Assembly: GCF_001262605.1 (NCBI RefSeq)
Contig: NZ_LGTC01000001.1
Span: forward strand, 1,071,192 to 1,103,191
Direction of reading: 5' to 3'
DNA from: Pseudobacteroides cellulosolvens ATCC 35603 = DSM 2933
GTDB taxonomy: Bacteria; Bacillota; Clostridia; Acetivibrionales; DSM-2933
Length of the DNA: 32,000 nucleotides
A program made the position numbers and the translations under genes. Below the pieces are notes generated by a model. The model saw only the letters and a list, made by a program, of their open reading frames with translations. It was not told the DNA's origin and searched no databases. Positions 2 to 24,379 of the stretch are shown piece by piece. Each line of letters begins with the position of its first letter. Position 1 is the stretch's first letter.

Positions 2-178
2 ACCGTCATCCGCGTATTCGCTGAGAATCAGCCTGTAACGTCAATTGTTGAGTCGATTCGCTCACTGCTGAACTCTAAACCCGTTGGAAACGATATTTGG
101 ATAGCCCTTGCGTGGTGTGTTGGTATCATGGTTGTTGCTTACCTATTCGCGATGAAGGTATATCGACGCAGGATATGA
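2..178 (+). CDS. 3' end of a membrane permease gene, probably ABC-2-type transporter permease (5'-partial, runs off the left edge)
   Basis: Frame 2 is open from the window edge to TGA at 176-178. It reads TVIRVFAENQPVTSIVESIRSLLNSKPVGNDIWIALAWCVGIMVVAYLFAMKVYRRRI*, a terminal hydrophobic helix plus basic tail as in ABC-2/DrrB-like permease C-termini. GC is visibly higher than in the next 600 bp. It is absent from the ORF track because it has no start in the window. The family call is from memory of the family only. Confidence 0.4.
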   Translation, partial: TVIRVFAENQPVTSIVESIRSLLNSKPVGNDIWIALAWCVGIMVVAYLFAMKVYRRRI

Positions 179-411
179 AAACACGAGGTAAGGGATGTAC
201 CTAACATCCGTAAAGATCTGTGATATAGTCATAGCAGAAATCTATTACCAATATTTATACAACACAAATAGAATAATAATACTAATAATAATTGTTAATG
301 CAATTTCAAAGAAATCAAATATATCTTTTATAAACTTTTTCTTTGTTAATTTGTTTCTATTAATAAGTTTATTTTTCATATTTAACATCACTTAAGGTAA
401 GCACACCTTTA

Positions 412-735
412 TTACAAATAATATCGAATAAACATCCAATTTGTAAAGAATCCCAATATAGATCCGAAAAAGATGTAAAAAATCCTAGATAGCAATTTGT
501 TTATTTTACTACTAAATTTAAATAAAATATATACAAGAACTAAAGAAAAAACAATATGCATATAAAATGAAAATTCATTTACTATTAAGTGGTCATTTGC
601 AGAATATACACCCATTGGAAACTTTTGAGTAAAGTCCATAAGATTGAAGGCAATATTTATTAATAAGTTAATAATAAATGGGCTTGCATAATACGACAAT
701 TTATATCTGTTTTTAGCTTCAAAACAAAGGAACAT
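412..735 (-). CDS. hypothetical small membrane protein (107 aa, about 3 hydrophobic helices)
   Basis: ORF-track ORF with a GGAGG Shine-Dalgarno 5-6 nt upstream of the ATG at 735 (minus strand cagatGGAGGatatATG). The sequence is hydrophobic. I recognise no family. Confidence 0.45.
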   Translation of the reverse strand: MFLCFEAKNRYKLSYYASPFIINLLINIAFNLMDFTQKFPMGVYSANDHLIVNEFSFYMHIVFSLVLVYILFKFSSKINKLLSRIFYIFFGSILGFFTNWMFIRYYL

Positions 736-761
736 ATATCCTCCATCTGATTACACGAAAT

Positions 762-778
762 CTTTATTTCGTGTAATC
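762..778. repeat. attL: 17-bp core ctttatttcgtgtaatc shared by all three prophage junctions
   Basis: The same 17-mer occurs at 762-778 and 7722-7738. It recurs at 16495-16511 with t instead of c at the first base. Sequence identity between the repeat units starts exactly at this core. Here the core forms the loop and right arm of a 13-bp-arm palindrome (749-761 gattacacgaaat / 766-778 atttcgtgtaatc). Confidence 0.8.
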
Positions 779-858
779 TATTGTAAATCTTTTTACCCCA
801 TACCCCTATTATCTATTAATATTCAAAACAGACTATTTATTTAAAAATAATAACTTTT

Positions 859-1059
859 CTAAACTTTCTTCAAATCATTTAATTTAAGAGTACCTAAAAA
901 CTGAGTTAATCCTTCATCGTCACAAATCTCAATTTCACAATCAACATCACTATAAATTTCAAGAATGGTACCTTTTTGTCCTTTTATAAGACTATGTTCT
1001 GGTATGTCACATAATAATTCTACCACATCAAATTCTTTCATTATTTTCAATGCCCCCAT
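859..1059 (-). CDS. DUF4926-like small protein (66 aa)
   Basis: MKEFDVVELLCDIPEHSLIKGQKGTILEIY..CEIEICDDEGLT..LGTLKLNDLK follows the pattern I associate with DUF4926 proteins. It is the last gene of the phage minus-strand cluster. Confidence 0.55.
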   Translation of the reverse strand: MGALKIMKEFDVVELLCDIPEHSLIKGQKGTILEIYSDVDCEIEICDDEGLTQFLGTLKLNDLKKV

Positions 1060-1095
1060 ATATAAAATTTAATTTTATTTTACACTTCAAATATA

Positions 1096-1362
1096 TTATT
1101 GTAAAAGCTTTTCCAAGCTTTTCTTAATTTTATCAAGTTCTTTCTTATATTTGCAAGTTTCACATTCAAAAAGTCTATCTTTAATACGGCGATTGCTTGA
1201 ATGATCTTCAATAAAGTTTTCACAATATTGTGGTATGTAATGTCGATTATAATTGTTTCTGATGTTAATGCATCTAATACAATGATCTAAACATTCAGCA
1301 CTATTAAGACAATAACCGCATCGACACCAGTAACAATTATATAAAGGTATTTTATAAGGCAT
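1096..1362 (-). CDS. Cys-rich small protein (88 aa, 11 Cys), possible metal-binding; function unknown
   Basis: ORF-track ORF with a clustered Cys pattern (CYWCRCGYC..C..C..C ... C ... CETC) and a Lys-rich helical tail. It is identical in both copies. Confidence 0.5.
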   Translation of the reverse strand: MPYKIPLYNCYWCRCGYCLNSAECLDHCIRCINIRNNYNRHYIPQYCENFIEDHSSNRRIKDRLFECETCKYKKELDKIKKSLEKLLQ

Positions 1363-1485
1363 TTTATATATCCTTTTTGCAATTTTTTAATTATTAAATT
1401 TCATATTTTAGTCGATTTTGGGTACGATCCGAACAGAATCTGCACAAAAACATGAAATTTAGACTATCGTTGACTGCATCACATA

Positions 1486-2667
1486 TTAAGCAACTGCATC
1501 TATTTCAGCCATAATTTTTTGTACCTCTTCGCTAACAGAATCATCAACATATTTATTATCAGCAAAAGTAAAGTCATCAGGAACAATAGAAAATTGCTTG
1601 AGGTTAACAACTGATGTTGTCCATGATATTCCTGATTCAATTAATATCTTTTTATATTTGTAGAATGTAGCTTTTTTATAATTTTGCTTTGTTTGTTCTT
1701 CTCCAAACTGTACCATTTGTGTCCACATTGAATATAAACTATTAGATAATCTTGTATCAAATAATTCATTTAATTTTTCTAATACTAAGTCACTACGCCT
1801 TACGATATCCATTTGGTCGTCCTCCTTAATTATCTTTTTTAACTCTGAATCTCTGAATGATTCTAAGGTTTTATCATCAATCATATATACAAATACCTTC
1901 TCTGAATCATATAATTCTTTGAGTTTTCTTATTTTTATTGAACATTCAAAACGGATAGTTCTCATTGCTCTTTCTAATATTTTATCAAACTTAATTTTTA
2001 ATAATGCTAGTTTATGACCAATATTATAATCACCATGAACTACAGAACAACTTTTATCTAATTCCCTTTTTATATATTTATCAATTCTCTTCCAGTCATG
2101 TTTTTTAAATTCAGGGCCCTTCCAGTAAAATTTATCAGTACATGTTGAACCAGAAAACATTAATGAAGTATCAAATATTATAGGTTTTCTTCTAGTATAA
2201 TAAGCATTCTTTAAATTTTCCATAATTTTCTTACATATGGAATGATGCTTAAAAACAAATATTTTTGACACATCAATTTTTTCTACTTCCCACCAATGAT
2301 AAGGTGGTAAATTAACATTCATTGCATTTTCTAAAAACTTTATTAAATACTTGACTGATTGTTGTATCTTTGTAGGACCACCGAAACAATTATGATTCAT
2401 CATTAACTTATGTAAACTACATTCAACCTTTATATACCAAGGCACTTTTATTTTTTCAGGTATACCATTTTCATTAATCCAATCGGTATTATCTACTGTT
2501 AACCTTATTCTATAATCATAACTGCCTTCAAGTTCACCAGAAGTAAATTGATATAATATTTCTCCTGTTTCAAAATTTAGACCCTCATAAATATTGCAAA
2601 AAGTTATTATTTTATCTTTAGTAATATCATCTATTTCAGGAGATTTAATAATTATTGTATCGTACAT
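1486..2667 (-). CDS. rolling-circle replication initiation protein, filamentous-phage gene II/X (G2P)-like
   Basis: 393 aa with GGAGG 11 nt upstream. The N-terminus MYDTIIIKSP and the segment ECSLHKLMMNHNCFGG resemble the S-x-x-K-x-x-x-G-H-N-x-F-G signature I recall for phage/plasmid replication protein II/X. Its position next to the Zot-like gene fits. Confidence 0.7.
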   Translation of the reverse strand: MYDTIIIKSPEIDDITKDKIITFCNIYEGLNFETGEILYQFTSGELEGSYDYRIRLTVDNTDWINENGIPEKIKVPWYIKVECSLHKLMMNHNCFGGPTKIQQSVKYLIKFLENAMNVNLPPYHWWEVEKIDVSKIFVFKHHSICKKIMENLKNAYYTRRKPIIFDTSLMFSGSTCTDKFYWKGPEFKKHDWKRIDKYIKRELDKSCSVVHGDYNIGHKLALLKIKFDKILERAMRTIRFECSIKIRKLKELYDSEKVFVYMIDDKTLESFRDSELKKIIKEDDQMDIVRRSDLVLEKLNELFDTRLSNSLYSMWTQMVQFGEEQTKQNYKKATFYKYKKILIESGISWTTSVVNLKQFSIVPDDFTFADNKYVDDSVSEEVQKIMAEIDAVA

Positions 2668-2700
2668 TTTTGTTTAACCTCCATTAAAATTTTTTATTTT

Positions 2701-2851
2701 GTCTATGTACGTAGACTCTCGTCGGGTGTTACATAGACCCGACGTGTTTTTCTCTTCAAACTATCTACTGCTTTTGTAGGGGTTTTTCTTAAAGTCTGTA
2801 GCGAATGGGTACCCCCTCCACACAGTGGAGCCTCCCCCATTCACTACAGAC
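2701..2851. other. hairpin-rich intergenic region between the Zot-like and Rep genes; candidate origin or packaging signal
   Basis: gtctatgta (2701-2709) pairs with tacatagac (2730-2738). cgtcggg (2720-2726) pairs with cccgacg (2738-2744), so the two helices interleave. A 58-nt hairpin spans 2794-2851, with 16-nt arms gtctgtagcgaatggg / cccattcactacagac (one mismatch) and an inner ctcca/tggag stem. The region is more GC-rich than its surroundings. Confidence 0.5.
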
Positions 2852-3545
2852 TAAAATCCAAAGACCTGTCAAAAGCTGAATAGCTATCATAAAGATTAGA
2901 ATACATTTTTTTGAATGTAAAAAATTGTATTCCACACTTTTCATTTACACCATACCAATAGGTAACAACGACAAATGCCTTAAGCTGTAAAAGTGATATT
3001 ATCATTCCTACAGTTCCAAAATTGTTAATTTTACGGTGCTTACAGTTATACTCAATAAATGCCCTAATCTGTCTATCAATAAGCCTATCATTCTGAGCAA
3101 TTAATATAACGTTATATCCAAGATGCCTATGCAACTGAAAAAACTTTATCCAGTTTGGGCGGTCTTTTCTGGAATATTCCCTGGGATTAAATATTACAGG
3201 ACATTCATCAATAATTAAAAGTGTCTGCCCTTCCCTACCCTTTTTATGATTATGTTTAGCAAAACATACAAGCAAAGTAGGATTAAGCTTAGAATTATCT
3301 ATGTAAAGGAATTTTCCTATTTTATACTCTAACTTGCCCTGAAGCTTTTCTTTTACCTTTTCTTCTTTCTTAAATAGTCTTGCAATTTTTAATATAATAT
3401 TCTTTATAGGCTTAAATTTAACTATTTCAAGATTAATAGGAAAATTAGATATTACATTATGTCCACGTCTTAATTTGAACATTATATCCCTTGCAACATT
3501 AAGACTTTTCCCACTTCCTGGTGTTCCTGAATTAAGATAAATCAT
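2844..3545 (-). CDS. Zot-like P-loop assembly ATPase (pI analogue), 233-aa form
   Basis: Walker A GTPGSGKS near the N-terminus and Walker B LLIIDECP, in the position of gene I in inovirus synteny. The stop codon lies in the right arm of the 2794-2851 hairpin. The C-terminal tail is hydrophilic, unlike the copy-2 form. Confidence 0.8.
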   Translation of the reverse strand: MIYLNSGTPGSGKSLNVARDIMFKLRRGHNVISNFPINLEIVKFKPIKNIILKIARLFKKEEKVKEKLQGKLEYKIGKFLYIDNSKLNPTLLVCFAKHNHKKGREGQTLLIIDECPVIFNPREYSRKDRPNWIKFFQLHRHLGYNVILIAQNDRLIDRQIRAFIEYNCKHRKINNFGTVGMIISLLQLKAFVVVTYWYGVNEKCGIQFFTFKKMYSNLYDSYSAFDRSLDFSL

Positions 3546-3558
3546 ATTTTAACACCCC

Positions 3559-3819
3559 TTATTTAATCATTCTTGCCCATCTCAAAATGAGCTGATAAGT
3601 ATAATAGACAGCCACTACAATTAACCATGCTTCTAATATGCTAATCATTTGGGCTATAGGTAACACCCAATTTAGTCCACCAAGAAATGAATTTACATCG
3701 GCATTATTTACAGTGTGAAATGGTGAATCAGGCAAAAGATTTATAATCCTTGCAACTAATTCAATTAACTTTTGTGTAATGCCTCCAAAAATATCACCAA
3801 ATATATCCATATTAATCAC
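3559..3819 (-). CDS. small membrane protein, pVI-like minor coat candidate (86 aa)
   Basis: Its size, hydrophobic segments and position between the pIII-like and Zot-like genes fit pVI. The annotated start at 3819 is GTG, and the ATG at 3810 is an alternative. It overlaps the upstream gene by 8 nt. Confidence 0.5.
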   Translation of the reverse strand: MINMDIFGDIFGGITQKLIELVARIINLLPDSPFHTVNNADVNSFLGGLNWVLPIAQMISILEAWLIVVAVYYTYQLILRWARMIK

Positions 3820-5122
3820 CTATAAACCTTCTTGAATTAATAATTAAAATAAAAGTGAAAATTAAAAGAGTTCCCCACCTTACAATTTTTGCCCATGCTT
3901 CAAACTGTGAAAAGTCTATAGTAAATTTACCTCCGCCCTTAAAAACAGAGTTTGAAAGGTCAATTTCCCATACGGGTGCTTTTGGTGTTGATTTTAATGC
4001 AACTACTGAATTATAAATGTCATATGGTATACAAAATGGAAACTTTCTTTTCATGAAATCACTTGGAATTGTTGGTGTATCTGTTCCCCATGTATTTGTT
4101 TCATTTGGGTCTGTCCATTCAAGCAAAACAAACTTTTTTGTAAATACAATTTTTCCAGTTGCATCCTTTATTTCAACTATGTTTTGTCCAATTTTATAAG
4201 GATTATTATATTTACCTTGCTCAACATTATAAAAATGATCATCGTAATAAGTTATTTGTTGATTTATAGGACAATCATTATATTTAACACCATTAACATA
4301 TATAGAATGCAATTGTTTGTTATATGTACCAGTACGTAAAACATACCATGTTGGAGCATATTGATATGTCTTTTCATTGTCAAATCCTATTATGTCTATT
4401 TTATTTGCATTAGTTTGCACTATTTCGAATTGTACTTCTGCTAATATTTCTCCAAATCCCGGTTCTCCTGGTGCAAGTCCTGTATTTTCTATGGTTATGC
4501 GATTTATACCTGGTACATATGGAATAATTTTTCCGGGAACATAAAAACCACTTAATGATTCGGTTAAATCCCATATATAAGTCATATTCATTTCCCAATT
4601 ACCATTTTTATCTTTTCCATATAAAATTACATCATAAGAAGAACCGTTGGTATCTGTAATTATTTGTATATTTGGATTTTCATCTATATATTTTTTTGAA
4701 CCTATAGGACTAATAAATTCAAATGTTGGTATATGTTCGTTACTTATTTTGTGTATTGTGCCATCATCATATACTACATCATAATTAGTATATACAAATG
4801 TTTGCCACGTGCCACCATGATAAAAATTTGCTGTTTGAAACCATTGTGAAATTTGCCCATTGTACAATTCAACTTCTATATAATTTCCTGAATTCTGTTT
4901 CCATAGTTGTTCAGTTTTATTATTCATTATTAACTTATCTTGCGAGTATATTGTTGTAGATACTAATTTACCATTATTTATATGTTCAATTACTGTTATA
5001 TAAGGATAGTCAATTGCATTATATTGCGTTAATGTTGTTGGTGATATTGTGTATGCAAAACAATTTATATAAAATCCTAAAGAAACAACTAATAAAATCA
5101 TAACATATAGTATTTTTTTCAT
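3812..5122 (-). CDS. pIII-like adsorption/minor coat protein candidate (436 aa)
   Basis: It has an N-terminal signal peptide (MKKILYVMILLVVSLGFYINCFA) and a C-terminal membrane anchor (WGTLLIFTFILIINSRRF). It lies immediately after the major coat gene, as gene III does. No sequence family is recognised. Confidence 0.55.
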   Translation of the reverse strand: MKKILYVMILLVVSLGFYINCFAYTISPTTLTQYNAIDYPYITVIEHINNGKLVSTTIYSQDKLIMNNKTEQLWKQNSGNYIEVELYNGQISQWFQTANFYHGGTWQTFVYTNYDVVYDDGTIHKISNEHIPTFEFISPIGSKKYIDENPNIQIITDTNGSSYDVILYGKDKNGNWEMNMTYIWDLTESLSGFYVPGKIIPYVPGINRITIENTGLAPGEPGFGEILAEVQFEIVQTNANKIDIIGFDNEKTYQYAPTWYVLRTGTYNKQLHSIYVNGVKYNDCPINQQITYYDDHFYNVEQGKYNNPYKIGQNIVEIKDATGKIVFTKKFVLLEWTDPNETNTWGTDTPTIPSDFMKRKFPFCIPYDIYNSVVALKSTPKAPVWEIDLSNSVFKGGGKFTIDFSQFEAWAKIVRWGTLLIFTFILIINSRRFIGD

Positions 5123-5139
5123 AACCTCACCGTCCCTTC

Positions 5140-5166
5140 AAAAAAAGGGACAGCCGAAGCCATCCC
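5140..5166 (-). terminator. intrinsic terminator after the major coat gene
   Basis: The minus strand reads GGGAUGGC-UUCG-GCUGUCCC (8-bp stem including two G-U pairs, UUCG tetraloop) followed by U7. It lies between the coat and pIII-like genes, as in Ff phages. The copy-2 equivalent is at 12100-12126. Confidence 0.6.
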
Positions 5167-5183
5167 CATTCCCTTTGGCAAAA

Positions 5184-5432
5184 TTATTTTGCCAGGCTTG
5201 CAAAAAACCTTTTGCCATACTTCCAAACCAAAAATGCACCAAATACAGCCAAACCATATGGAGCAACTTTGGCAAGACCTGCTAATACATCCGATTTGAT
5301 AGCAGTAAAATCAGTATCCATAGCAGTTGCTGTTCCTTCATCAAGTGCAGCAAATGACTGTATTGATACCATTGCAACTGCTAAACAAGTAAAAATAACT
5401 GATAAAAGTTTCTTTTTGTTTAATCTTTTCAT
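5184..5432 (-). CDS. major coat protein precursor (pVIII-like, 82 aa)
   Basis: It has a signal peptide ending SFA, an acidic mature N-terminus (ALDEGTATAMDTD), a hydrophobic core (GLAKVAPYGLAVFGAFLVW) and a basic C-terminus (KYGKRFFASLAK). This is the canonical inovirus coat layout. GGAGGG sits upstream. Confidence 0.8.
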   Translation of the reverse strand: MKRLNKKKLLSVIFTCLAVAMVSIQSFAALDEGTATAMDTDFTAIKSDVLAGLAKVAPYGLAVFGAFLVWKYGKRFFASLAK

Positions 5433-5461
5433 AAAAGACCCTCCTTAAATATGTAATTAGA

Positions 5462-5569
5462 TTATCTAAACAGTCTTAAACAGACCGTAAAGCCAAAACT
5501 TAAAAGAAATGCACTACCTGTAATTACTAAACCCCATTTCAAACCCATAAACACTAAACTAAAATCCAT
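5462..5569 (-). CDS. 35-aa hydrophobic protein, pVII/pIX-like minor coat candidate (not in ORF track)
   Basis: The minus strand reads AGGTGGTGctgatATG, then MDFSLVFMGLKWGLVITGSAFLLSFGFTVCLRLFR*. The RBS overlaps the stop of the upstream ORF. Size and position match gene VII/IX. Confidence 0.45.
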   Translation of the reverse strand: MDFSLVFMGLKWGLVITGSAFLLSFGFTVCLRLFR

Positions 5570-5580
5570 ATCAGCACCAC

Positions 5581-5736
5581 CTAAGAATTACGATTAAAGC
5601 ATGATACAAATACCAAAACAACAACTGTTGCAATAAAGAAACCAAAAAATATATTAATTAAAGATATTGCATCGTTTACTGCTTTTAATGTCTGATATTC
5701 GTAATATGTACCATAAACCGCTTCATAAACTGCCAT
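5581..5736 (-). CDS. 51-aa small membrane protein, minor coat candidate
   Basis: I trimmed the 76-aa track ORF to the internal ATG at 5736 (MAVYEAVYGTYYEYQ...). That ATG starts 4 nt after the stop of the upstream gene and has AGAGG upstream. The longer form would overlap the ssDNA-binding candidate by 71 nt. Confidence 0.4.
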   Translation of the reverse strand: MAVYEAVYGTYYEYQTLKAVNDAISLINIFFGFFIATVVVLVFVSCFNRNS

Positions 5737-5740
5737 GACA

Positions 5741-6052
5741 CTATACCTCTGAAAGTAATTCAAGTGAATCCAGTTTAACCTGGAGTTTACCTTTAACATT
5801 CTTAAATGCAAAGGTCATTGTGTAAAATGCTGGCACAACTGTAACTGAGCCGATTTTTTCAGTTGGAAGACTTTCTTTAACAACCTTTGTTCCTAAAGTG
5901 CCATCTTCATTTAATAAAGGTTTAAGAGAATCTACCGGAATATACTCAATTGTATTCCCTTCCCTTACTTCCCCTGTTCTTTCATCAACCATTGACCACT
6001 TGTTAGGATTGGCGAACGTTACAAGTCCGATTACTTTATTTTCCATGCTCAT
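5741..6052 (-). CDS. ssDNA-binding protein candidate (pV analogue, 103 aa)
   Basis: The call rests on size and position upstream of the coat module, and on a beta-rich composition. No motif is recognised. Confidence 0.4.
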   Translation of the reverse strand: MSMENKVIGLVTFANPNKWSMVDERTGEVREGNTIEYIPVDSLKPLLNEDGTLGTKVVKESLPTEKIGSVTVVPAFYTMTFAFKNVKGKLQVKLDSLELLSEV

Positions 6053-6168
6053 TCCTCCTCATCATCTTTATAATTACATTGTGTACAATGCCAAAATGCG
6101 TCTTCATAAATTCCCATTGCGTTACATCCGATGTCAACCATTTCTGCCCCACAGTTAGGACAATTCAT
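6049..6168 (-). CDS. 39-aa zinc-ribbon protein
   Basis: I trimmed the 61-aa track ORF to the ATG at 6168, which is preceded by GGAGGGGG. The protein MNCPNCGAEM...HCTQCNYKDDEEE has two CxxC pairs. Its stop overlaps the next start (ATGA). Confidence 0.5.
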   Translation of the reverse strand: MNCPNCGAEMVDIGCNAMGIYEDAFWHCTQCNYKDDEEE

Positions 6169-6212
6169 AACAACCCCCTCCACATCGAACAATCGTTCTA
6201 ATATTATTGTAC

Positions 6213-6271
6213 TACTTGTGTAACCTATTAGCAAAACAGTTATTCCTACTTCTGTAACCTATTAGTAAAAC
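6213..6271. repeat. two 25-bp direct repeats (23/25 identical, 34-bp period); candidate operator or iteron
   Basis: The repeats are tacttgtgtaacctattagcaaaac (6213-6237) and tacttctgtaacctattagtaaaac (6247-6271). They lie between the predicted minus-strand promoter and the first structural-operon gene. The copy-2 equivalents span 14988-15046. Confidence 0.6.
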
Positions 6272-6325
6272 GAAAATATTTTTAAAAATCATATAACTGA
6301 CAACATCAAACGTATTACACTTTTA

Positions 6326-6355
6326 ATTATATATCTGTATAACATTCAATGTCAA
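6326..6355 (-). promoter_or_regulatory. sigma-A-like promoter for the phage minus-strand operon
   Basis: The minus strand reads TTGACA (6350-6355), an 18-nt spacer, then TATAAT (6326-6331). The copy-2 equivalent is at 15101-15130. Confidence 0.5.
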
Positions 6356-6364
6356 TAGTATGAT

Positions 6365-6393
6365 ATATTATATCTTAGGCAATATGTTATAAT
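6365..6393 (+). promoter_or_regulatory. divergent promoter for the RHH regulator gene (extended -10)
   Basis: TGtTATAAT lies at 6385-6393 with a weak -35. It is back-to-back with the minus-strand promoter. The copy-2 equivalent is at 15140-15168. Confidence 0.35.
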
Positions 6394-6426
6394 ACTTTTA
6401 AAATATACTTAGAAAGGATGTTTTTA

Positions 6427-6603
6427 ATGGCAAAAGATATTTTCACACTAAGAATTACACCTGAAATTTTGAATAAAATTAAAGCTATAGCAGGAATAGA
6501 AAAAAGAACAACAGCAACACAAATAGAGTATGCATTAGAAATATATATAAAAGACTATGAAAAATTACATGGTAAAGTTGAAGTAAAAGATAATGATGAA
6601 TAA
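6427..6603 (+). CDS. ribbon-helix-helix (CopG/Arc/MetJ-like) transcriptional regulator, 58 aa
   Basis: FTLRITPEILNKIKAIAGIEKRTTATQIEYALEIYI fits a strand-helix-helix pattern. I moved the start to the ATG at 6427, about 10 nt after AAAGGA, because the track start at 6418 is too close to the RBS. The gene is divergent from the structural operon. Confidence 0.55.
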   Translation: MAKDIFTLRITPEILNKIKAIAGIEKRTTATQIEYALEIYIKDYEKLHGKVEVKDNDE

Positions 6604-6613
6604 AAGGTGAATT

Positions 6614-6949
6614 ATGCAAAATAAAAGCTTAATTAAACATAAAAAAGAAATTTTATTATATTATAAATTATTGTCTATTTTATCTATAATATGTCTTGGT
6701 ATCATATTTCCTTTTATATTTAGCTTTTTGCATAAAGCAGATTTAATATCTCCATATATTATTAACATACCATTAAAATATTTTTATATATTTTATAGTG
6801 TTTTAGGAATGGTTGTAGGGTTTACAATTAGCTATATTAAAATATTAAAACTAAAGTTGTTTTTAGAAAGTTGTTTACGTATAGAAAAAATTGAAGAAGA
6901 TATATCAAAAATATTATATGAAAAGAATGATATTTATCAATCTTCCTAA
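6614..6949 (+). CDS. small membrane protein (111 aa, 2 TM plus helical tail); function unknown
   Basis: ORF-track ORF, 10 nt after the RHH gene and preceded by AAGGTG. It is hydrophobic and identical in both copies. Confidence 0.5.
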   Translation: MQNKSLIKHKKEILLYYKLLSILSIICLGIIFPFIFSFLHKADLISPYIINIPLKYFYIFYSVLGMVVGFTISYIKILKLKLFLESCLRIEKIEEDISKILYEKNDIYQSS

Positions 6950-15201: not shown

Positions 15202-15378
15202 ATGGCAAAAGATATTTTCACACTAAGAATTACACCTGAAATTTTGAATAAAATTAAAGCTATAGCAGGAATAGAAAAAAGAACAACAGCAACACAAATA
15301 GAGTATGCATTAGAAATATATATAAAAGACTATGAAAAATTACATGGTAAAGTTGAAGTAAAAGATAATGATGAATAA
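15202..15378 (+). CDS. RHH transcriptional regulator (copy 2)
   Basis: Same as 6427-6603. Confidence 0.55.
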   Translation: MAKDIFTLRITPEILNKIKAIAGIEKRTTATQIEYALEIYIKDYEKLHGKVEVKDNDE

Positions 15379-15388
15379 AAGGTGAATT

Positions 15389-15724
15389 ATGCAAAATAAA
15401 AGCTTAATTAAACATAAAAAAGAAATTTTATTATATTATAAATTATTGTCTATTTTATCTATAATATGTCTTGGTATCATATTTCCTTTTATATTTAGCT
15501 TTTTGCATAAAGCAGATTTAATATCTCCATATATTATTAACATACCATTAAAATATTTTTATATATTTTATAGTGTTTTAGGAATGGTTGTAGGGTTTAC
15601 AATTAGCTATATTAAAATATTAAAACTAAAGTTGTTTTTAGAAAGTTGTTTACGTATAGAAAAAATTGAAGAAGATATATCAAAAATATTATATGAAAAG
15701 AATGATATTTATCAATCTTCCTAA
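15389..15724 (+). CDS. small membrane protein (copy 2)
   Basis: Same as 6614-6949. Confidence 0.5.
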   Translation: MQNKSLIKHKKEILLYYKLLSILSIICLGIIFPFIFSFLHKADLISPYIINIPLKYFYIFYSVLGMVVGFTISYIKILKLKLFLESCLRIEKIEEDISKILYEKNDIYQSS

Positions 15725-16240
15725 TAAATAGCCCTAAAATGGGCTTTATTTTATGTCGAAAATGCGTAAGGGTGAAGAATGAAGAATTCACTGGATTATC
15801 GAAATTTGGGTAGTTTTCCCGCAAAAATTCGCCTTAAATCGTAATATCTTACCGCCCTTTACGTGCCTGTCAAAATTTATTCTGGGAACCCCGAAGTAAT
15901 TAGTTCCTAATTGTCTATACCTGCCCGCGTTCGAACTCTCACCCCAAGAAAGTACAGAGATATTTTATAATGCAGTGTCGGGGTTCAACAAGCTTTAAGA
16001 GTGCATTAGGTCACTCGTTGAAGTAATGCTAATTTGTTTGAACTCACCCCCGCCCCTTGAAGGGGAGGCAATTACCTTTCATTCTTGGCTTTTGATTTTA
16101 CCTCCCCTTTTTGTCAAGGGATGACGGCATAAGTAGTAATAATAACGGGTCGCTCAACTTATACGTCATTAACCCTTGACATGGTCATCCTATTGGGTCG
16201 GCGGTCTTCGAAGCCAACAAGAATGAAAGGATGATGAATT
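15725..16240. other. structured ORF-free intergenic region (copy 2)
   Basis: It equals 6950-7467 apart from two single-C deletions in C-runs. Confidence 0.55.
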
Positions 16241-16453
16241 ATGAATATCGAATTTAATGGAAAATCAATTGCAAATTACAAACTTGAAGTTAGCCAAATA
16301 GAACTTTGGGAAATCAAGAACGCAATCAAAAGAAAATTGAAAAAAGAAAGAGAATTTATTGATGAGATGTACACTGAAAATCAAGATGAAGAATTTGAGA
16401 AATCAAACAGAACATTAATACTTATGCTTGAATCTATCGAAAAAATAATATAA
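16241..16453 (+). CDS. hypothetical 70-aa protein (copy 2)
   Basis: Same as 7468-7680. Confidence 0.5.
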   Translation: MNIEFNGKSIANYKLEVSQIELWEIKNAIKRKLKKEREFIDEMYTENQDEEFEKSNRTLILMLESIEKII

Positions 16454-16475
16454 GCCGGAGAAATCCGGCTTTTTT
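16454..16475 (+). terminator. intrinsic terminator (copy 2)
   Basis: gccgga-gaaa-tccggc followed by T6. Confidence 0.75.
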
Positions 16476-16494
16476 CCATTTCAAAAAACATTCT

Positions 16495-16511
16495 TTTTAT
16501 TTCGTGTAATC
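16495..16511. repeat. attR core (ttttatttcgtgtaatc)
   Basis: This is the third copy of the junction core. It is followed by agat (16512-16515), which completes the palindrome arm begun at 745. Confidence 0.8.
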
Positions 16512-16627: not shown

Positions 16628-17043
16628 TTATCTTCTTTGTATATTTATCATCTTTAAATGCAAAAAATCATCATCAATATTATGTGATGAGTAATTTCTC
16701 ATTACATAAGTTACAAGCAAACATATAGTTTGTTTTTTATAAATATCTATTGTGGATTCTTGCAATTCAATAAGGTTTTTTAGTACTAAAATACTATTAT
16801 CTCTAGCATTAGTTTTAAACTCTTTTGTAAATAATTGATTATAAGACTCTTTAATAATCTTGAGTACTCATATGCAATATTCATTATTAATTCATAATGA
16901 GATAATATTTTTTCCTCAAGCATTTCATTCATAAGCATATCAATCTCATTATAATAGTTATATTTTTCTATTCTTGTTCCAATATAATTATCTGCATCAA
17001 AAATTTTATTATTTGTATCTCTTTCAATAAATAAACATATCAT
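16628..17043 (-). pseudogene. possible frameshifted small gene (85-aa ORF plus an overlapping ORF of about 80 codons in another frame)
   Basis: The track ORF 16786-17043 ends in IIVF*. A second frame is open from about 16875 to the stop at 16628 and reads ...IIKESYNQLFTKEFKTNARDNSILVLKNLIELQESTIDIYKKQ.... Together they would form a helical protein of about 140-150 aa. The region is very AT-rich, so chance ORFs are likely. Confidence 0.25.
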
Positions 17044-17152
17044 TTTACTTTAACCTCTTTTTTAATCAAATTATCCTACCTTTACTAAATAACGTATATA
17101 AACTATTATAATATATTTTTTTATATTAAAAAGACAAATTCTTTGCATAAAT

Positions 17153-17173
17153 AAAAAAGCCTAAAATTAGGCT
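17153..17173 (-). terminator. intrinsic terminator of the carbamoyltransferase operon
   Basis: The minus strand has agcct-aatttt-aggct followed by a T-run, 35 nt after the stop at 17208. Confidence 0.5.
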
Positions 17174-17207
17174 TTATGTATAACACAAAATTATAATTAT
17201 TAAAAAA

Positions 17208-18572
17208 TCAATTCAATATCATTTTTGCCATCTCATCAGAAACTATCTTATTTCCTTTGCTGTTTATATGGCATGCATCTATAAATATATTATCCTTTTT
17301 ATTCAAAAATAGCTCTGACCAGTCAAAAGCTGCAACATTCTGCTTTTTTAAACTTTCTATTGAATTTCTAAGTGCAGCATAGCCTTCATCACAAGCTAAA
17401 AAGATTTTAGGCATGTACTTCTTTGCCCAATTGTGCACTCTTTTTGCATCCTCATAACTATCAGGATAATTCCCATAGACTCCTACAGGTTGGACAATAC
17501 AATAATACTTAAAGCCGTACTGAACCGAAAGATTGTACATTTTTAGATTGTTGTCGGTAAATACTTCGCCTGTTTTTACAGCCAGCTTTTTGACCTTGGA
17601 AATATCGTTCATATGCTCTGATACAGACCTTATATTATCGCTATTTTTATCAGATTCAAGCCTAATGCGTTTGTATATATTGCTTGGTACTACTTTTGAT
17701 ATAAACTCTTTAACTTTGTTACGGCTTTCGTAATCGAACATTACACCTTCAGGCTCATTGAAGTAAATTCCGTTAACAATATCGTTATAAGCATGATAAC
17801 CAATTACTATATCTGGCTTTAACCCTGCTTTCAGCTCAAACTCGAGCCTTTCAAGTTCCTGGCTCGAATTTGCCGAGTCTACCCCTGCATTAATTACAAA
17901 ATACTTGTTTTTTCCTGAAGAATTCAGAATTTCGGAAAGCTGGCTGCTTATGGTAAGATTATCCGGGACATCATTACAATACATTGTGGAGCCGCCCAAC
18001 ATTAGCACCTTTATAACATCATTGTCATCATAGTTGTATTTGTTTATGGTTCTACGTACAACATTTTTTGATCCAAAAGCTGCCGGTTCGGCATTTATGT
18101 ACTTTCCGTAAAACTCCTTTTTAAATATAAGCCTTGTTCCTTCAGGTGTATTCCACTCTCCGGGCTTCATTGCTGCATATTTTTCCAATAAAAACTCATG
18201 AGAGTAAAATGGTTCAGTTTCATAGGCTGCTTTAGCAGCTATCTCAAGTTCTGACTCCCAAGGTTTTATTGGATTAATGTACCCATAGATTACATCTACC
18301 AAAAAGAAAAGTATATATGACACCAGTACGATAATTACTGTTGTCTTAATATAATACATAATCTTTTTGTAATGCTTTTCTATTTTTCCCTTAAATATAA
18401 TCATCAATAACCCTAAAAAGAACAGGAATATATCAAAACCCCAAATAGCATATCTTCCTGAAGAATCTCCGATTATTCCATCTGATGTAAACAGCCTTGC
18501 AATGGTATATTCATTTACTAACAGTACTGAAATCAGGAATATAATTCCTACTAACTTTATATGTTTCTTCAT
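17208..18572 (-). CDS. membrane-anchored SGNH/GDSL-like hydrolase or acyltransferase (454 aa)
   Basis: I trimmed the 501-aa track ORF to the ATG at 18572, preceded by AAGGAG. The extra N-terminus of the track ORF merely overlaps the DUF5989 gene in another frame. The protein has N-terminal TM helices. Its motifs are VLMLGGSTMY (block I-like), AYNDIVNG (block III-like) and IDACHINSKGN (DxxH block V). Confidence 0.55.
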   Translation of the reverse strand: MKKHIKLVGIIFLISVLLVNEYTIARLFTSDGIIGDSSGRYAIWGFDIFLFFLGLLMIIFKGKIEKHYKKIMYYIKTTVIIVLVSYILFFLVDVIYGYINPIKPWESELEIAAKAAYETEPFYSHEFLLEKYAAMKPGEWNTPEGTRLIFKKEFYGKYINAEPAAFGSKNVVRRTINKYNYDDNDVIKVLMLGGSTMYCNDVPDNLTISSQLSEILNSSGKNKYFVINAGVDSANSSQELERLEFELKAGLKPDIVIGYHAYNDIVNGIYFNEPEGVMFDYESRNKVKEFISKVVPSNIYKRIRLESDKNSDNIRSVSEHMNDISKVKKLAVKTGEVFTDNNLKMYNLSVQYGFKYYCIVQPVGVYGNYPDSYEDAKRVHNWAKKYMPKIFLACDEGYAALRNSIESLKKQNVAAFDWSELFLNKKDNIFIDACHINSKGNKIVSDEMAKMILN

Positions 18573-18583
18573 TGTTTTTCTCC

Positions 18584-18736
18584 TTAAAACAGTGAATATA
18601 TAAATGGTGCAAGAGCAGAACCTGGAACAACAACTACAAGTACACCTATGACTAAAAGTACAATTATTATAGGCATTAGCCAGAATTTCTTTCTTACTTT
18701 CATAAAGCCCCATAAATCTTTAAGCAAGTCCAACAT
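18584..18736 (-). CDS. DUF5989-like 50-aa membrane protein (not in ORF track)
   Basis: My translation is MLDLLKDLWGFMKVRKKFWLMPIIIVLLVIGVLVVVVPGSALAPFIYSLF*. This matches the DUF5989 pattern I recall (...LW.F.KVRKKFWL.PII..LL..G.L......S...PFIY.LF). Its ATG overlaps the SxtJ stop (TAATG). Its stop overlaps the RBS of the next gene. Confidence 0.6.
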   Translation of the reverse strand: MLDLLKDLWGFMKVRKKFWLMPIIIVLLVIGVLVVVVPGSALAPFIYSLF

Positions 18737-19155
18737 TAAAAAGGCACCTCCATTCTTTCAACAGGTATTTGGTTACTTTTCTTACGATATGTATTTGCCG
18801 TAGCATCAAATTTATCATCTAAAGGCCTGTATCCAAATAGTTTCATAACAATTCCTATCGGTGTGATAACAATAAAAAACACTACAATAAGAAGTATTGT
18901 TGTGTTTATACGGCCTAAAAACATACCTATCTTCATCCACACTTTATAGAAATTTTTAAGGGTGGATGGCATAATTAATGCCCACATAAATAATATAGCT
19001 GCTACTATCCAAGGCCATATTCCATAAGGCTTATGTCTTAAAAATGGAATTAGTAAGCCAAATAGTAAACCTATTGCAATACTTAAGGTGAAACCAAACC
19101 GTCTTAATTCCTTTAAATCCATACCTTTGTTATCTATATCTTTATTAGATTGCAT
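18736..19155 (-). CDS. SxtJ-family-like small membrane protein (139 aa)
   Basis: It has about four hydrophobic helices and sits between a carbamoyltransferase gene and a DUF5989 gene. That is the arrangement I recall for SxtJ-family genes. Confidence 0.5.
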   Translation of the reverse strand: MQSNKDIDNKGMDLKELRRFGFTLSIAIGLLFGLLIPFLRHKPYGIWPWIVAAILFMWALIMPSTLKNFYKVWMKIGMFLGRINTTILLIVVFFIVITPIGIVMKLFGYRPLDDKFDATANTYRKKSNQIPVERMEVPF

Positions 19156-19166
19156 TTTAAATCCCC

Positions 19167-21008
19167 CTAATCCAGCTCAAATTCAGTTTTCCATGATTCA
19201 TCTTTTTGAACCTTTGGCTGATCATTTTTGGCCAATATAAAATTTTCAAGTACAAGATAATCCATATCGGTACGCATAAAGCAGCGGTATGCATCCTCAG
19301 CAGTACAAACTATAGGTTCTCCACGGACATTGAAGGAAGTGTTCACAATAACGCTGCAACCGGATAACTTCCCAAACTCTTTAATAAGTCTATAATATCT
19401 TGGATTTGTTTCTTCATGAACTGTTTGTACCCTGGCAGAATAATCAACATGTGTAACGGCGGGGATTGAAGAACGTGCAACATTGAGTTTTTCAATACCA
19501 AAAAGCTCATCCTGCTCTTTAGTCATGTTAACCCGTATGTCTTGTACAACCGGAGCTACCAGAAGCATGTATGGGCTTTCATGATCCAGCTGAAAATAGT
19601 CTCCTGCTTTTTCATGAAGAACAGAAGGTGCAAATGGCCTGAAGGATTCACGATACTTTATTTTAAGGTTCATTACAGATTGCATTTTTGAGTTTCTGGG
19701 ATCGCCTATAATAGAACGGCCACCAAGAGCCCTCGGACCAAATTCCATACGCCCTTGAAACCAACCTATGACCTTGCCTTCCACAAGTATTTTTGCCAGA
19801 TTTGCATACAATTCGTCATCATTGAGATTCTTGTATTTAGCTTTTACAGAATCCAAGTAATCTTTTATACTCTCTGGTTTTTGTGAAGGACCTAAATATG
19901 AACCTTTCATGCTATCGCCTTTAGCAGAATTTCGTGGCTGCTTTAAGTATTGATGCCATACTGAAAGGGCAGCTCCCAGTGCCCCGCCCGAGTCTCCAGA
20001 TGCAGGCTGTATCCATATATCTTTGAAAATACCTTCACTTAATACTCGTCCGTTTGCAACACAGTTAAGTGCAACTCCGCCTGCTAAACATAGGTTCTCT
20101 GCTCCTGTTTCTTTTTTTATTGTGCGGGAAAGCCTTAATATGATTTCTTCTGTAACTTGCTGTATAGAGCGAGCTATGTCCATTTCACGCTGTGTAATAA
20201 CTGATTCAGACTTTCTTGGAGGTCCGCCAAAAAGTTTGTGAAATTCATTGCTTGTCATTGTAAGACCTGTAGTATAGTTGAAGTACTTCATATTTAATCT
20301 AAAAGTACCATCGTCTTTAAGATCAATTATATTATCAAGAATCAAATCAACATAGGTTGGGTTACCGTAAGGAGCTAGTCCCATTAATTTATATTCTCCG
20401 GAATTTACTTTAAAGCCGGTATAGTATGTAAAGGCAGAATATAAAAGACCTAATGAGTGTGGGAAATCCATTTGCCAAAGAGGAGTCAAACTATTATCTT
20501 CACCCATCCATACAGATGTTGTAGCCCATTCCCCAACACCATCAACACATAAAACAGCAGCTTTTTTAAATGGGCTTGGATAAAATGCAGATGCTGCATG
20601 GGACATGTGATGCTCGGTAAAGAGCAGCTGCGGGAGCTCATTAACCTTGCAATTACCTAAAGAAGCCAGCTCTGTTTTTAAGAGTTTTTTAAGGAACAAC
20701 TTTTCCTTAAGCCATATCGGCATTGATTTAATATAGGAAGCAAATCCTCGAGGAGAGCATGATATATATGTCTCAAGTAATCTTTCAAACTTTAATAAAG
20801 GCTTTTCGTAATAAACTATCTTATCTACATCACGAATACTTATTTTTGCTTCGGACAGACAATAATTTACAGCGTTTACCGGGAACCTTTCATCTTGCTT
20901 TTTCCTTGTAAATCTTTCTTCCTGGGCTGCCGCTATTATTACGCCATCAACTAATAGTGCAGCGGCACTATCATGATAATATGCGGATATCCCAAGTATT
21001 TTTTCCAT
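19167..21008 (-). CDS. carbamoyltransferase (NodU/CmcH family), 613 aa
   Basis: The N-terminus ILGISAYYHDSAAALLVDGVIIAAAQEERFTRKK, plus GGVALNC, the ...SFN..GEPIV... C-terminal domain and the length are typical of the family. Confidence 0.85.
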   Translation of the reverse strand: MEKILGISAYYHDSAAALLVDGVIIAAAQEERFTRKKQDERFPVNAVNYCLSEAKISIRDVDKIVYYEKPLLKFERLLETYISCSPRGFASYIKSMPIWLKEKLFLKKLLKTELASLGNCKVNELPQLLFTEHHMSHAASAFYPSPFKKAAVLCVDGVGEWATTSVWMGEDNSLTPLWQMDFPHSLGLLYSAFTYYTGFKVNSGEYKLMGLAPYGNPTYVDLILDNIIDLKDDGTFRLNMKYFNYTTGLTMTSNEFHKLFGGPPRKSESVITQREMDIARSIQQVTEEIILRLSRTIKKETGAENLCLAGGVALNCVANGRVLSEGIFKDIWIQPASGDSGGALGAALSVWHQYLKQPRNSAKGDSMKGSYLGPSQKPESIKDYLDSVKAKYKNLNDDELYANLAKILVEGKVIGWFQGRMEFGPRALGGRSIIGDPRNSKMQSVMNLKIKYRESFRPFAPSVLHEKAGDYFQLDHESPYMLLVAPVVQDIRVNMTKEQDELFGIEKLNVARSSIPAVTHVDYSARVQTVHEETNPRYYRLIKEFGKLSGCSVIVNTSFNVRGEPIVCTAEDAYRCFMRTDMDYLVLENFILAKNDQPKVQKDESWKTEFELD

Positions 21009-24100: not shown

Positions 24101-24379
24101 CCTGCGGTTTTTAATTACACCCTGTTCAATCATTAATTTTTCAAAGGCTTTATTCATGTAAGTCCAGTTCATATCTCCATCAGTAACATGAATAGGAAAA
24201 GGAACAGCGTCGATAATTTCTTCATACCAGGCCATTCTTTCTGCAATTTTTTTTAGCAGCGATATTATTCCTTCCGAATCTTTTGAATCTGATTCAATAG
24301 TAATGTTTGTCTCACCAGCAGCTATTTTTTCAGCCATTACCACAATCTTATTAAATGCTTTATCGCTAAACCATTTCAT
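21191..24379 (-). CDS. soluble methyl-accepting chemotaxis protein with duplicated Cys-rich PAS-like sensor modules and a poly-HAMP-like region (1062 aa)
   Basis: The C-terminal MCP signalling domain reads ...[41 protein letters not shown].... There is no N-terminal TM helix. A 222-aa module (aa 50-271 and 272-493) is duplicated. Confidence 0.9.

Follow-up and report, generated by a model that had tools for sequence, protein, structure and literature searches.

An integrase-less inovirus arrayed in tandem at a dif-like palindrome of Pseudobacteroides cellulosolvens

How does a filamentous phage that carries no integrase come to lie, as two head-to-tail copies, in the chromosome of a Gram-positive bacterium? 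The question is raised by a locus of Pseudobacteroides cellulosolvens ATCC 35603 = DSM 2933 (Bacillota; Clostridia; Acetivibrionales), which we analyzed in a stretch of 32,000 nucleotides (assembly GCF_001262605.1, contig NZ_LGTC01000001.1, positions 1,071,192 to 1,103,191 of the forward strand), hereafter called the window; coordinates given without a contig name are those of the window. From the comparisons presented below, the element is an integrase-less inovirus, inserted twice head-to-tail in a palindrome resembling a chromosome-dimer-resolution (dif) site, and it most likely exploits the Xer recombinase of its host, in the manner of the integrative mobile elements exploiting Xer (IMEX).

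The array was delineated by comparing the window with itself. Positions 761-5451 recur at 7721-12411 with 99.89% identity, and positions 5441-7738 recur at 14216-16511 with 99.83% identity. The two prophage units thereby delimited are unit 1 (779-7738, 6,960 bp), next to the palindrome of the left attachment site attL, and unit 2 (7739-16511, 8,773 bp), which is longer because of a 1,815-bp insertion of the IS110 family of insertion sequences (IS). Both units are on the minus strand, which carries all their main open reading frames (ORFs), and the GC content of unit 1 is 0.30 vs 0.36 for the host flanks. At the internal junction the end of one phage genome is joined to the start of the next, forming the phage attachment site attP. 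An earlier sequence-only reading of this DNA had proposed an integrase-less inovirus tandem in a Clostridia-like genome, with a head-to-tail arrangement from 779 to 16511 and an internal junction at 7738/7739 that regenerates the attachment sequence. The self-comparison and the junction sequences, together with the profile matches and the gene order described below, bear this out; the two units had been taken for collinear copies of 6.96 kb each, which the insertion in unit 2 contradicts.

The nature of the phage was assessed by profile searches with its predicted proteins (E-values in brackets). The protein of 233 amino acids (aa) encoded at 2844-3545, minus strand, matched the Zot/pI assembly ATPase family over the full profile (PF05707, 8e-22) and displays the Walker A motif GTPGSGKS and the Walker B motif LLIIDE. 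Its counterpart in unit 2 (9750-10505) has 251 aa, the difference resulting from a 1-nt indel in an A5/A6 homopolymer at 2919/9879. The C-terminus aligns with that of a homologue in the unit 1 frame only, and therefore the 233-aa frame is taken as native and the 251-aa form as a frameshift variant. The 393-aa protein encoded at 1486-2667 (minus strand; 8447-9628 in unit 2) is a G2P-like rolling-circle initiator (Rep), which matched PF05144 above the cut-off (3.7e-8) and PHROG 702 (2e-24), as well as PF05155 weakly and below the cut-off. The major coat protein, 82 aa (5184-5432, minus strand; 12144-12392 in unit 2), matched PHROG 1646 (1e-4) and has the signal/acidic/hydrophobic/basic layout. 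These three matches and the genome size of about 7 kb, within the 5-15 kb of such phages, confirm the prophage as an inovirus; the Zot and G2P assignments that the sequence-only reading had put forward for profile checking were thus both recovered. No secretin was detected among the phage ORFs, again as that reading had it, and none of these ORFs matched an integrase or transposase family, the IS110 element being counted as a separate host IS. No other structural families were matched in the unit ORFs, among which no capsid, terminase or lysis gene was recognised. No match was obtained when the DNA of the unit was compared with 50,697 phage records, and the closest deposited phage Rep, that of Lentisphaerae phage WC36-1, is at most 32% identical.

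The attachment (att) sites indicate where such a phage enters the chromosome. A 17-nt core, (C/T)TTTATTTCGTGTAATC, occurs three times, at 762-778, 7722-7738 and 16495-16511. At attL (749-778) it forms part of a full dif-like palindrome, GATTACACGAAAT-CTTT-ATTTCGTGTAATC, composed of a left arm from the host and of a spacer and right arm common to host and phage, and this site is a candidate reconstituted dif. The core of the internal attP (CTTTATTTCGTGTAATC, 7722-7738) is preceded by a degenerate arm, AAAAAACATTCT. At the right attachment site attR (core TTTTATTTCGTGTAATC, 16495-16511) the degenerate arm of the phage, the spacer and the good arm are followed by host DNA. The bacterial site attB, reconstructed from the host sides of attL and attR, reads cATCTGATTACACGAAAT-CTTT-ATTTCGTGTAATCAGATa, a near-perfect 13+4+13 palindrome. 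The phage site therefore shares 17 of 17 nt with the host site, namely the spacer and one arm, beside a degenerate second arm, and with both palindrome arms present at attL the full site is rebuilt on integration. A dif-like palindrome serving as att site would explain why the phage needs no integrase.

The first spacer position is C in attL and attP and T in attR, and the closest empty-looking site (L023) has the spacer TTTT. Had the host allele been T, this difference would be consistent with a crossover on the left edge of the spacer, one single-nucleotide polymorphism being too little to build on. A second dif-like arm in the phage, of the kind that forms the hairpin of the Vibrio cholerae phage CTXphi, was searched for and not found, all other matches to the arm carrying 2 mismatches and none of them lying near attP. 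Of the CTXphi-type arrangement that had been proposed for this locus, the integrase-less tandem with an attP junction is thus retained, and the second inverted arm required for a folded attP is missing. On the host side, a 107-aa hydrophobic ORF of low GC content and without family match (412-735, minus strand) starts 14 nt from the palindrome, with the G-rich flank of the latter as ribosome-binding site; it could belong to the host or be left from an earlier element inserted at this position.

The palindrome was then searched in other genomes with the pattern TTACACGAAAT-N4-ATTTCGTGTAA, which has 22 fixed bases, in a collection of one genome per species amounting to 596 Gb. We obtained 22 matches in 22 genomes, one in each, for a chance expectation that we estimate at about 0.1, and all of these genomes belong to Clostridia (Acetivibrio, Ruminiclostridium, Oscillospiraceae and other Bacillota). 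The consensus of the target site is (G)ATTACRCGAAAT-N4-ATTTCGYGTAAT(C), and the genes flanking it differ between genomes. In 10 of the 22 loci, a gene for a Xer-family protein of about 330 aa has its start at a distance of 75-140 nt from the palindrome and is directed away from the latter. This protein scored 227 bits with the XerC profile, 211 with XerD and 197 with XerA, all under the equivalog cut-offs; its best matches in the PDB are XerD and XerA, and it is 75-100% identical across the clade, where it is annotated as XerC or XerD. GC skew could be calculated for the 16 loci with at least 900 bp on both sides of the palindrome, and it switches there from positive to negative in 13 of them (binomial p = 4e-6). 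The switch is also observed at loci without an adjacent xer gene (L006, L008, L016, L018, L021 and L023), and in A. clariflavus, where a variant palindrome lies 2 kb from xer, the skew switches at the palindrome too. As a side observation, a G-rich flank (TTGGGAGG-like) accompanies the palindrome in most genomes (L004-L025), conserved on a single side, and an adjacent xer gene is always on that side; this flank could make the otherwise symmetric site asymmetric or could be the ribosome-binding site of a tiny ORF.

In Legionella, the same features served to recognise dif, as a palindrome of about 30 bp that is AT-rich, single-copy and non-coding, with varying neighbours and located at a skew inflection (PMC9765430), and linkage of dif to the xer gene is the rule for the XerS/difSL and XerH/difH systems (PMC1914069, PMC3325230). 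Judged by its sequence and genomic setting, the palindrome looks like the dif site of this clade of Clostridia. We do not claim homology with difH: in a comparison by eye, both sites have GAAA/TTTC inner half-sites, with a spacing of 6 vs 8 (difH sequences from PMC3325230).

Related phages were retrieved through Rep, for which 108 homologues were collected; scans of IMG/VR with Rep gave nothing or a single locus, and the metagenome scan mostly short contigs. Homologues 53-74% identical to the Rep of P. cellulosolvens led to four further lineages. L026 comes from a related organism, L028 and L029 are one site in two samples, the host DNA of L031 and L032 is syntenic with A. clariflavus, and L035 is a contig with a free attP only. 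Wherever the phage is integrated (L026, L028/L029 and L031/L032), attL has the full palindrome, and the spacer of attR stands between a degenerate arm and a good one; the same design as in attR is found in the internal attP of these phages and in the free attP of L035. Moreover, the phage arm tracks the variant of the host, being ATTTCGTGTAAT in P. cellulosolvens, ATTTCGTTTAAT in L026 and ATTTCGCGTAAT in L029 and L031 (variants GTG, GTT and GCG). None of these dif-targeting phages encodes a recombinase. The skew switches at the integrated prophages as well, from +0.17 to -0.13 in L028 and from +0.15 to -0.19 in L031, L026 being left out of the comparison with a second flank of 759 nt. In L028/L029 as in L031/L032, the genes of the phage are directed towards the regenerated full site, on the strand whose skew matches that of the neighbouring flank, and the right flank of the window shows the same arrangement of gene direction and skew. 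A carbamoyltransferase/SxtJ/DUF5989 cluster borders attR in the window (16786-21008) and likewise the L026 prophage (168-4400 of that contig); therefore this dif-proximal neighbourhood has been kept in two related hosts carrying different phages, whose Rep proteins are 74% identical.

All five dif-targeting lineages, P. cellulosolvens included, also share a Cys-rich protein of 88 aa encoded between Rep and attP (1096-1362, minus strand; 8057-8323 in unit 2), which was undetected in equally related contigs lacking a dif-like attP and which we regard as a candidate accessory factor of integration. Its AlphaFold model has a mean predicted local distance difference test (pLDDT) of 62, a confidence too low to justify a fold search. 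On contig L061 a lone homologue (10001-10281) abuts a full dif-like palindrome with no other phage genes; the skew flips sharply at this palindrome, from +0.20 to -0.09, and the neighbours are heme-biosynthesis genes, as beside the A. clariflavus site. This homologue may be what is left of a prophage, or it may have been domesticated. Further metagenome contigs (L034 and L036-L038), with Rep proteins 58-60% identical, have a GC-rich structured intergenic region after Rep. Neither a dif-like arm nor the Cys-rich ORF was detected within those contigs, and their phages may be purely episomal or use a different att site.

Several observations weigh against the identification of the palindrome as dif and against its use by Xer in this host. 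The 22 scanned genomes do not include P. cellulosolvens, so that the single-copy status of the palindrome refers to its relatives, and no xer gene is present within the 32-kb window. The skew of the host's own flanks is mixed on the left, about +0.01 over 8 kb, and -0.16 on the right. A local rearrangement may explain the left value; the position at the terminus is therefore established for the relatives and not cleanly for P. cellulosolvens. Besides, a palindrome lying upstream of xer in 10 of the 22 genomes could partly be a regulatory operator, and attP has one recognisable arm, where tyrosine recombinases normally need two binding sites. The last two points would also be accounted for if the phage integrated by a function of its own, independently of Xer, either through nicking of the palindrome hairpin by its HUH-type Rep or through the Cys-rich 88-aa protein, the palindrome being then merely a convenient hairpin, an operator or a terminator. 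The palindrome is indeed able to form a hairpin of 13-17 bp, it is directly followed in the window by the ribosome-binding site and start of the 107-aa ORF, and the Cys-rich ORF accompanies the dif-like attP in five lineages out of five. We nevertheless consider this explanation unlikely. An operator or terminator predicts neither a single-copy site nor a location at the skew switch, both of which are found even where xer is unlinked, and the genes around the palindrome vary from genome to genome. In addition, mimicry of one arm plus the spacer, with regeneration of the full site, is the design of IMEX att sites, including the truncated 22-nt site of the Legionella element LME-1 (PMC9765430; PMC5357621), and an 88-aa protein of zinc type is too small for a known recombinase.

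Under Xer-dependent integration, for which we infer the catalysis by Xer, the order of events and the production of virions, the following course can be proposed. A Xer-family tyrosine recombinase of the host, which would normally resolve chromosome dimers at the palindrome, would recombine attP with this palindrome, the Cys-rich 88-aa protein possibly acting as an accessory factor that drives the reaction. The reaction would produce an attL with a complete palindrome, hence with a functional dif, and an attR with an attP-like half-site, and dimer resolution would be preserved. Because dif is regenerated, further integration would be possible, and a second genome or a dimeric replicative form would integrate again to yield the array. 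Progeny DNA could then be produced by two routes, either through recombination of attL with the internal attP by Xer, which would excise a copy, or through Rep-driven rolling-circle replication from the origin of one copy to that of the next. As a half-site, double-stranded attP of the kind known in TLCphi, VGJphi or LME-1 could also be excised by Xer, the tandem array is not necessarily required for virion production. If the origin lies in the non-coding region 6950-7467 described below, the rolling-circle route would be expected to yield mainly the IS-bearing unit 2. The host IS110 element would have entered unit 2 later, just upstream of the coat gene, and this unit may also carry a frameshift in Zot. 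Among IMEX, the best reading of the phage is that it is of the TLCphi/VGJphi type rather than of the CTXphi type.

The array itself is genuine. The two units differ at nine positions apart from the insertion, four of which are single-base homopolymer indels (1063/8024, 2919/9879, 7043 and 7273), and the substitutions include 5311, 5613 and 7722. Contig L001, from an Illumina draft assembly of this species, has a mosaic of these alleles, of unit 2 type at 1063 and 5311 and of unit 1 type at 2919. Some of the differences between units may therefore be long-read consensus errors, or else L001 may be a collapsed mosaic. One could go further and suppose that there is no true array, the assembler having merged a single prophage with its circular replicative form or with population heterogeneity. 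The homopolymer indels are in line with such a merger, and so are the metagenomic relatives: L026 and L031 were assembled as two copies and L029 is a scaffold in which the attP junction is followed by an N gap, but the copies are 100% identical and could be assembler loops from a coexisting circular form. For these relatives the coexistence of the attP junction with attL and attR is therefore proven, and the array not strictly so. For the window itself we regard a merger as very improbable. The units are distinguished by the 1.8-kb IS and by the substitutions at 5311, 5613 and 7722, and both are enclosed in a single contiguous sequence with distinct host flanks. Furthermore, contig L001 of the independent Illumina draft ends exactly at 5444/12404, the point where the IS-bearing and IS-free versions diverge, and both versions must therefore be present in that assembly. 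Unit 1 is seemingly intact and likely the functional copy, whereas unit 2 carries the IS and a possible Zot frameshift.

The insertion in unit 2 calls for another possibility to be weighed. Filamentous prophages of the Nf/MDA type in Neisseria are thought to integrate by means of an IS110-family transposase, and the transposase found here could likewise be the integrase of the phage. The IS (about 12405-14219, 1,815 bp, minus strand) lies just upstream of the ribosome-binding site of the coat gene and encodes a 426-aa DEDD transposase (12814-14094, minus strand; PF01548 3e-26, PF02371 1e-24, PHROG 2199 9e-63); the statement of the sequence-only reading that there is no recombinase of any kind is in this respect literally wrong, although the enzyme is not a phage integrase. 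A DEDD transposase of this family that lies within the prophage and has the orientation of the phage genes is compatible with the Neisseria model, in which the transposase is present in every copy and the prophage ends are its own ends. Here, on the contrary, it is confined to unit 2 as a discrete IS, with clean boundaries relative to unit 1. Its ends, GGAGCATTCC...GAGGGAG, bear no relation to the att core, the P. cellulosolvens draft has copies identical over 1,801 nt and with different flanks on two further contigs, and none of the four related phages contains IS110. The role of integrase was accordingly rejected, being effectively refuted by the presence in one copy only, the separate ends and the multiple copies in the host. 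By these sequence comparisons the insertion is a multicopy host IS and not a phage integrase. At its right end an 18-nt tandem duplication, AAGATTATTGAGGGAGGG, is missing from the other genomic copies; this duplication sets two GGAGGG motifs before the coat gene. The long non-coding end 3' of the transposase is an IS1111-like layout and gave no Rfam match. More generally, no Rfam family reached its gathering score in the window, which has no tRNA genes, and permissive RNA-family scans, run on the IS and on the non-coding region of the phage, returned one weak match at chance level only.

The remaining phage genes complete the inovirus gene order with varying degrees of confidence. A 436-aa protein (3812-5122, minus strand; 10772-12082 in unit 2) that has a signal peptide at its N-terminus and an anchor at its C-terminus is a pIII-like adsorption candidate, and a small membrane protein of 86 aa (3559-3819, minus strand; 10519-10779) is termed pVI-like from its position and hydrophobicity. 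Two tiny hydrophobic ORFs, one of 35 aa and one of about 50 aa within 5581-5811, are candidate minor coat genes by composition and position (5462-5811, minus strand; 14237-14586). A 103-aa protein (5741-6052, minus strand; 14516-14827) is a candidate single-stranded DNA-binding protein from its position, and in the related contigs L035-L037 the ORF located after the intergenic region opens with an N-terminus that is similar as judged by eye. None of these four features has a family match. Thus, of the full inovirus synteny proposed by the sequence-only reading, Zot, Rep and the coat protein are backed by profile matches, and the pIII-like, pVI-like, single-stranded DNA-binding and tiny ORFs by position or composition only. 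Two divergent ORFs of 61 and 111 aa (6418-6949, plus strand; 15193-15724), without family match, are a candidate regulatory or immunity module from their orientation. They are followed by a non-coding structured region of 518 nt (6950-7467, minus strand; 15725-16240), a candidate replication origin or packaging signal by its conservation and fold. It is 83% identical to the L026 phage, vs 77% for the Rep region, which places it among the best-conserved segments, and its fold as single-stranded DNA has a z-score of -3.6. Finally, a 66-aa accessory ORF (859-1059, minus strand; 7819-8019) matched DUF4926 (PF16277, 4e-16) and was not found in the related phages.

Two further host genes in the right flank of the window deserve mention. 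The 1,062-aa methyl-accepting chemotaxis protein encoded at 21191-24379 (minus strand) contains an internal 666-nt direct repeat corresponding to repeated HAMP_2 domains, 23079-23378 and 23745-24044 being 68% identical. A 494-aa ORF (25205-26689, minus strand) has a Cas12f1-like/TnpB TNB zinc-finger domain (PF07282, 4e-8) and probably encodes a transposon-associated nuclease of the TnpB type.

Inoviruses of Clostridia, tandem inovirus prophages and the exploitation of Xer are already known separately (PMC6813254, PMC10061712, PMC5357621). In the literature surveyed, whose coverage was incomplete so that absence of evidence only is meant, we found no IMEX in a Gram-positive host, no description of the palindrome as dif and no relevant paper in which the motif is printed. 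For several Clostridium genomes, the dif predictions of Kono et al. 2011 failed or fell far from the skew shift (PMC3025954 and its supplement). It is conceivable, and we put it forward tentatively, that the array marks an undescribed dimer-resolution system of cellulolytic Clostridia, with a perfectly symmetric 13+4+13 dif and a single Xer, often encoded next to it, together with the first Gram-positive family of Xer-exploiting filamentous phages. The clade meant comprises Acetivibrio, Ruminiclostridium, Pseudobacteroides and their relatives, and its phages would have a half-site attP and possibly a Cys-rich accessory protein, a wider proposal that we hold with the same reserve. Of its two parts, we rate the candidate dif/Xer system exposed by the att site of the phage as the more novel. 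If true, the proposal would account for the lysogeny of Gram-positive Clostridia by integrase-less inoviruses, which large surveys left open, and would supply a concrete candidate dif/Xer pair for a clade in which sequence-based dif prediction is weak. The half-site attP might also be developed into a simple tool for integrating DNA into hard-to-engineer cellulolytic Clostridia.

The phage resembles known systems in different respects. Like the Enterocloster inoviruses (PMC10061712) and those in the survey of Roux et al. 2019 (PMC6813254), which are prophages of 6.5-8.5 kb, it bears Zot/pI, is hosted by Clostridia and is flanked by direct repeats. Roux et al. also noted tandem prophages with two pI genes and set aside 800 such sequences (PMC6813254). 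Integrase-less integration was not analyzed in these two studies, nor were the att sites tied to dif or Xer (PMC10061712, PMC6813254).

The closest parallel for the target site is the XerL/dif system of Legionella with its element LME-1 (PMC9765430). There too a long uninterrupted palindrome is mimicked in truncated form by the element, the target is single-copy, AT-rich and non-coding, with varying flanks and a GC-skew inflection, and it was the att site of the element that revealed an unrecognised dif. LME-1 is not a filamentous phage, and xerL is far from dif, whereas xer adjoins the site in about half of the genomes here, an adjacency that recalls XerS/difSL and XerH/difH. Experimental validation exists for the system of Legionella, that of Clostridia being a candidate from its sequence.

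With CTXphi of V. cholerae, whose arrays are located at dif, the phage shares a filamentous nature, the lack of an integrase and the tandem arrangement, and CTXphi can make its virion DNA by rolling-circle replication across adjacent copies (PMC4439123, PMC4246890). The attP of CTXphi is a folded single-strand hairpin of two inverted dif-like sites, whereas the P. cellulosolvens phage is devoid of the second arm, and unlike that of CTXphi its integration need not be irreversible. The similarity with TLCphi, VGJphi and the gonococcal genetic island extends further. These elements are likewise integrase-less, their attP combines a conserved arm, a centre and a divergent arm, and a functional dif is restored each time they integrate, so that further copies can follow and arrays can form (PMC5357621, PMC4246890). 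A XafT-like (DUF3653) activator was not detected in the phage, in which the Cys-rich 88-aa protein is the only candidate accessory factor. Whereas these elements belong to Vibrio and Neisseria, the phage described here is hosted by a Gram-positive lineage of Clostridia, and instead of a 28-bp dif bound by XerC and XerD, the target is a symmetric 13+4+13 palindrome that is probably served by one Xer, encoded beside the site in many genomes.

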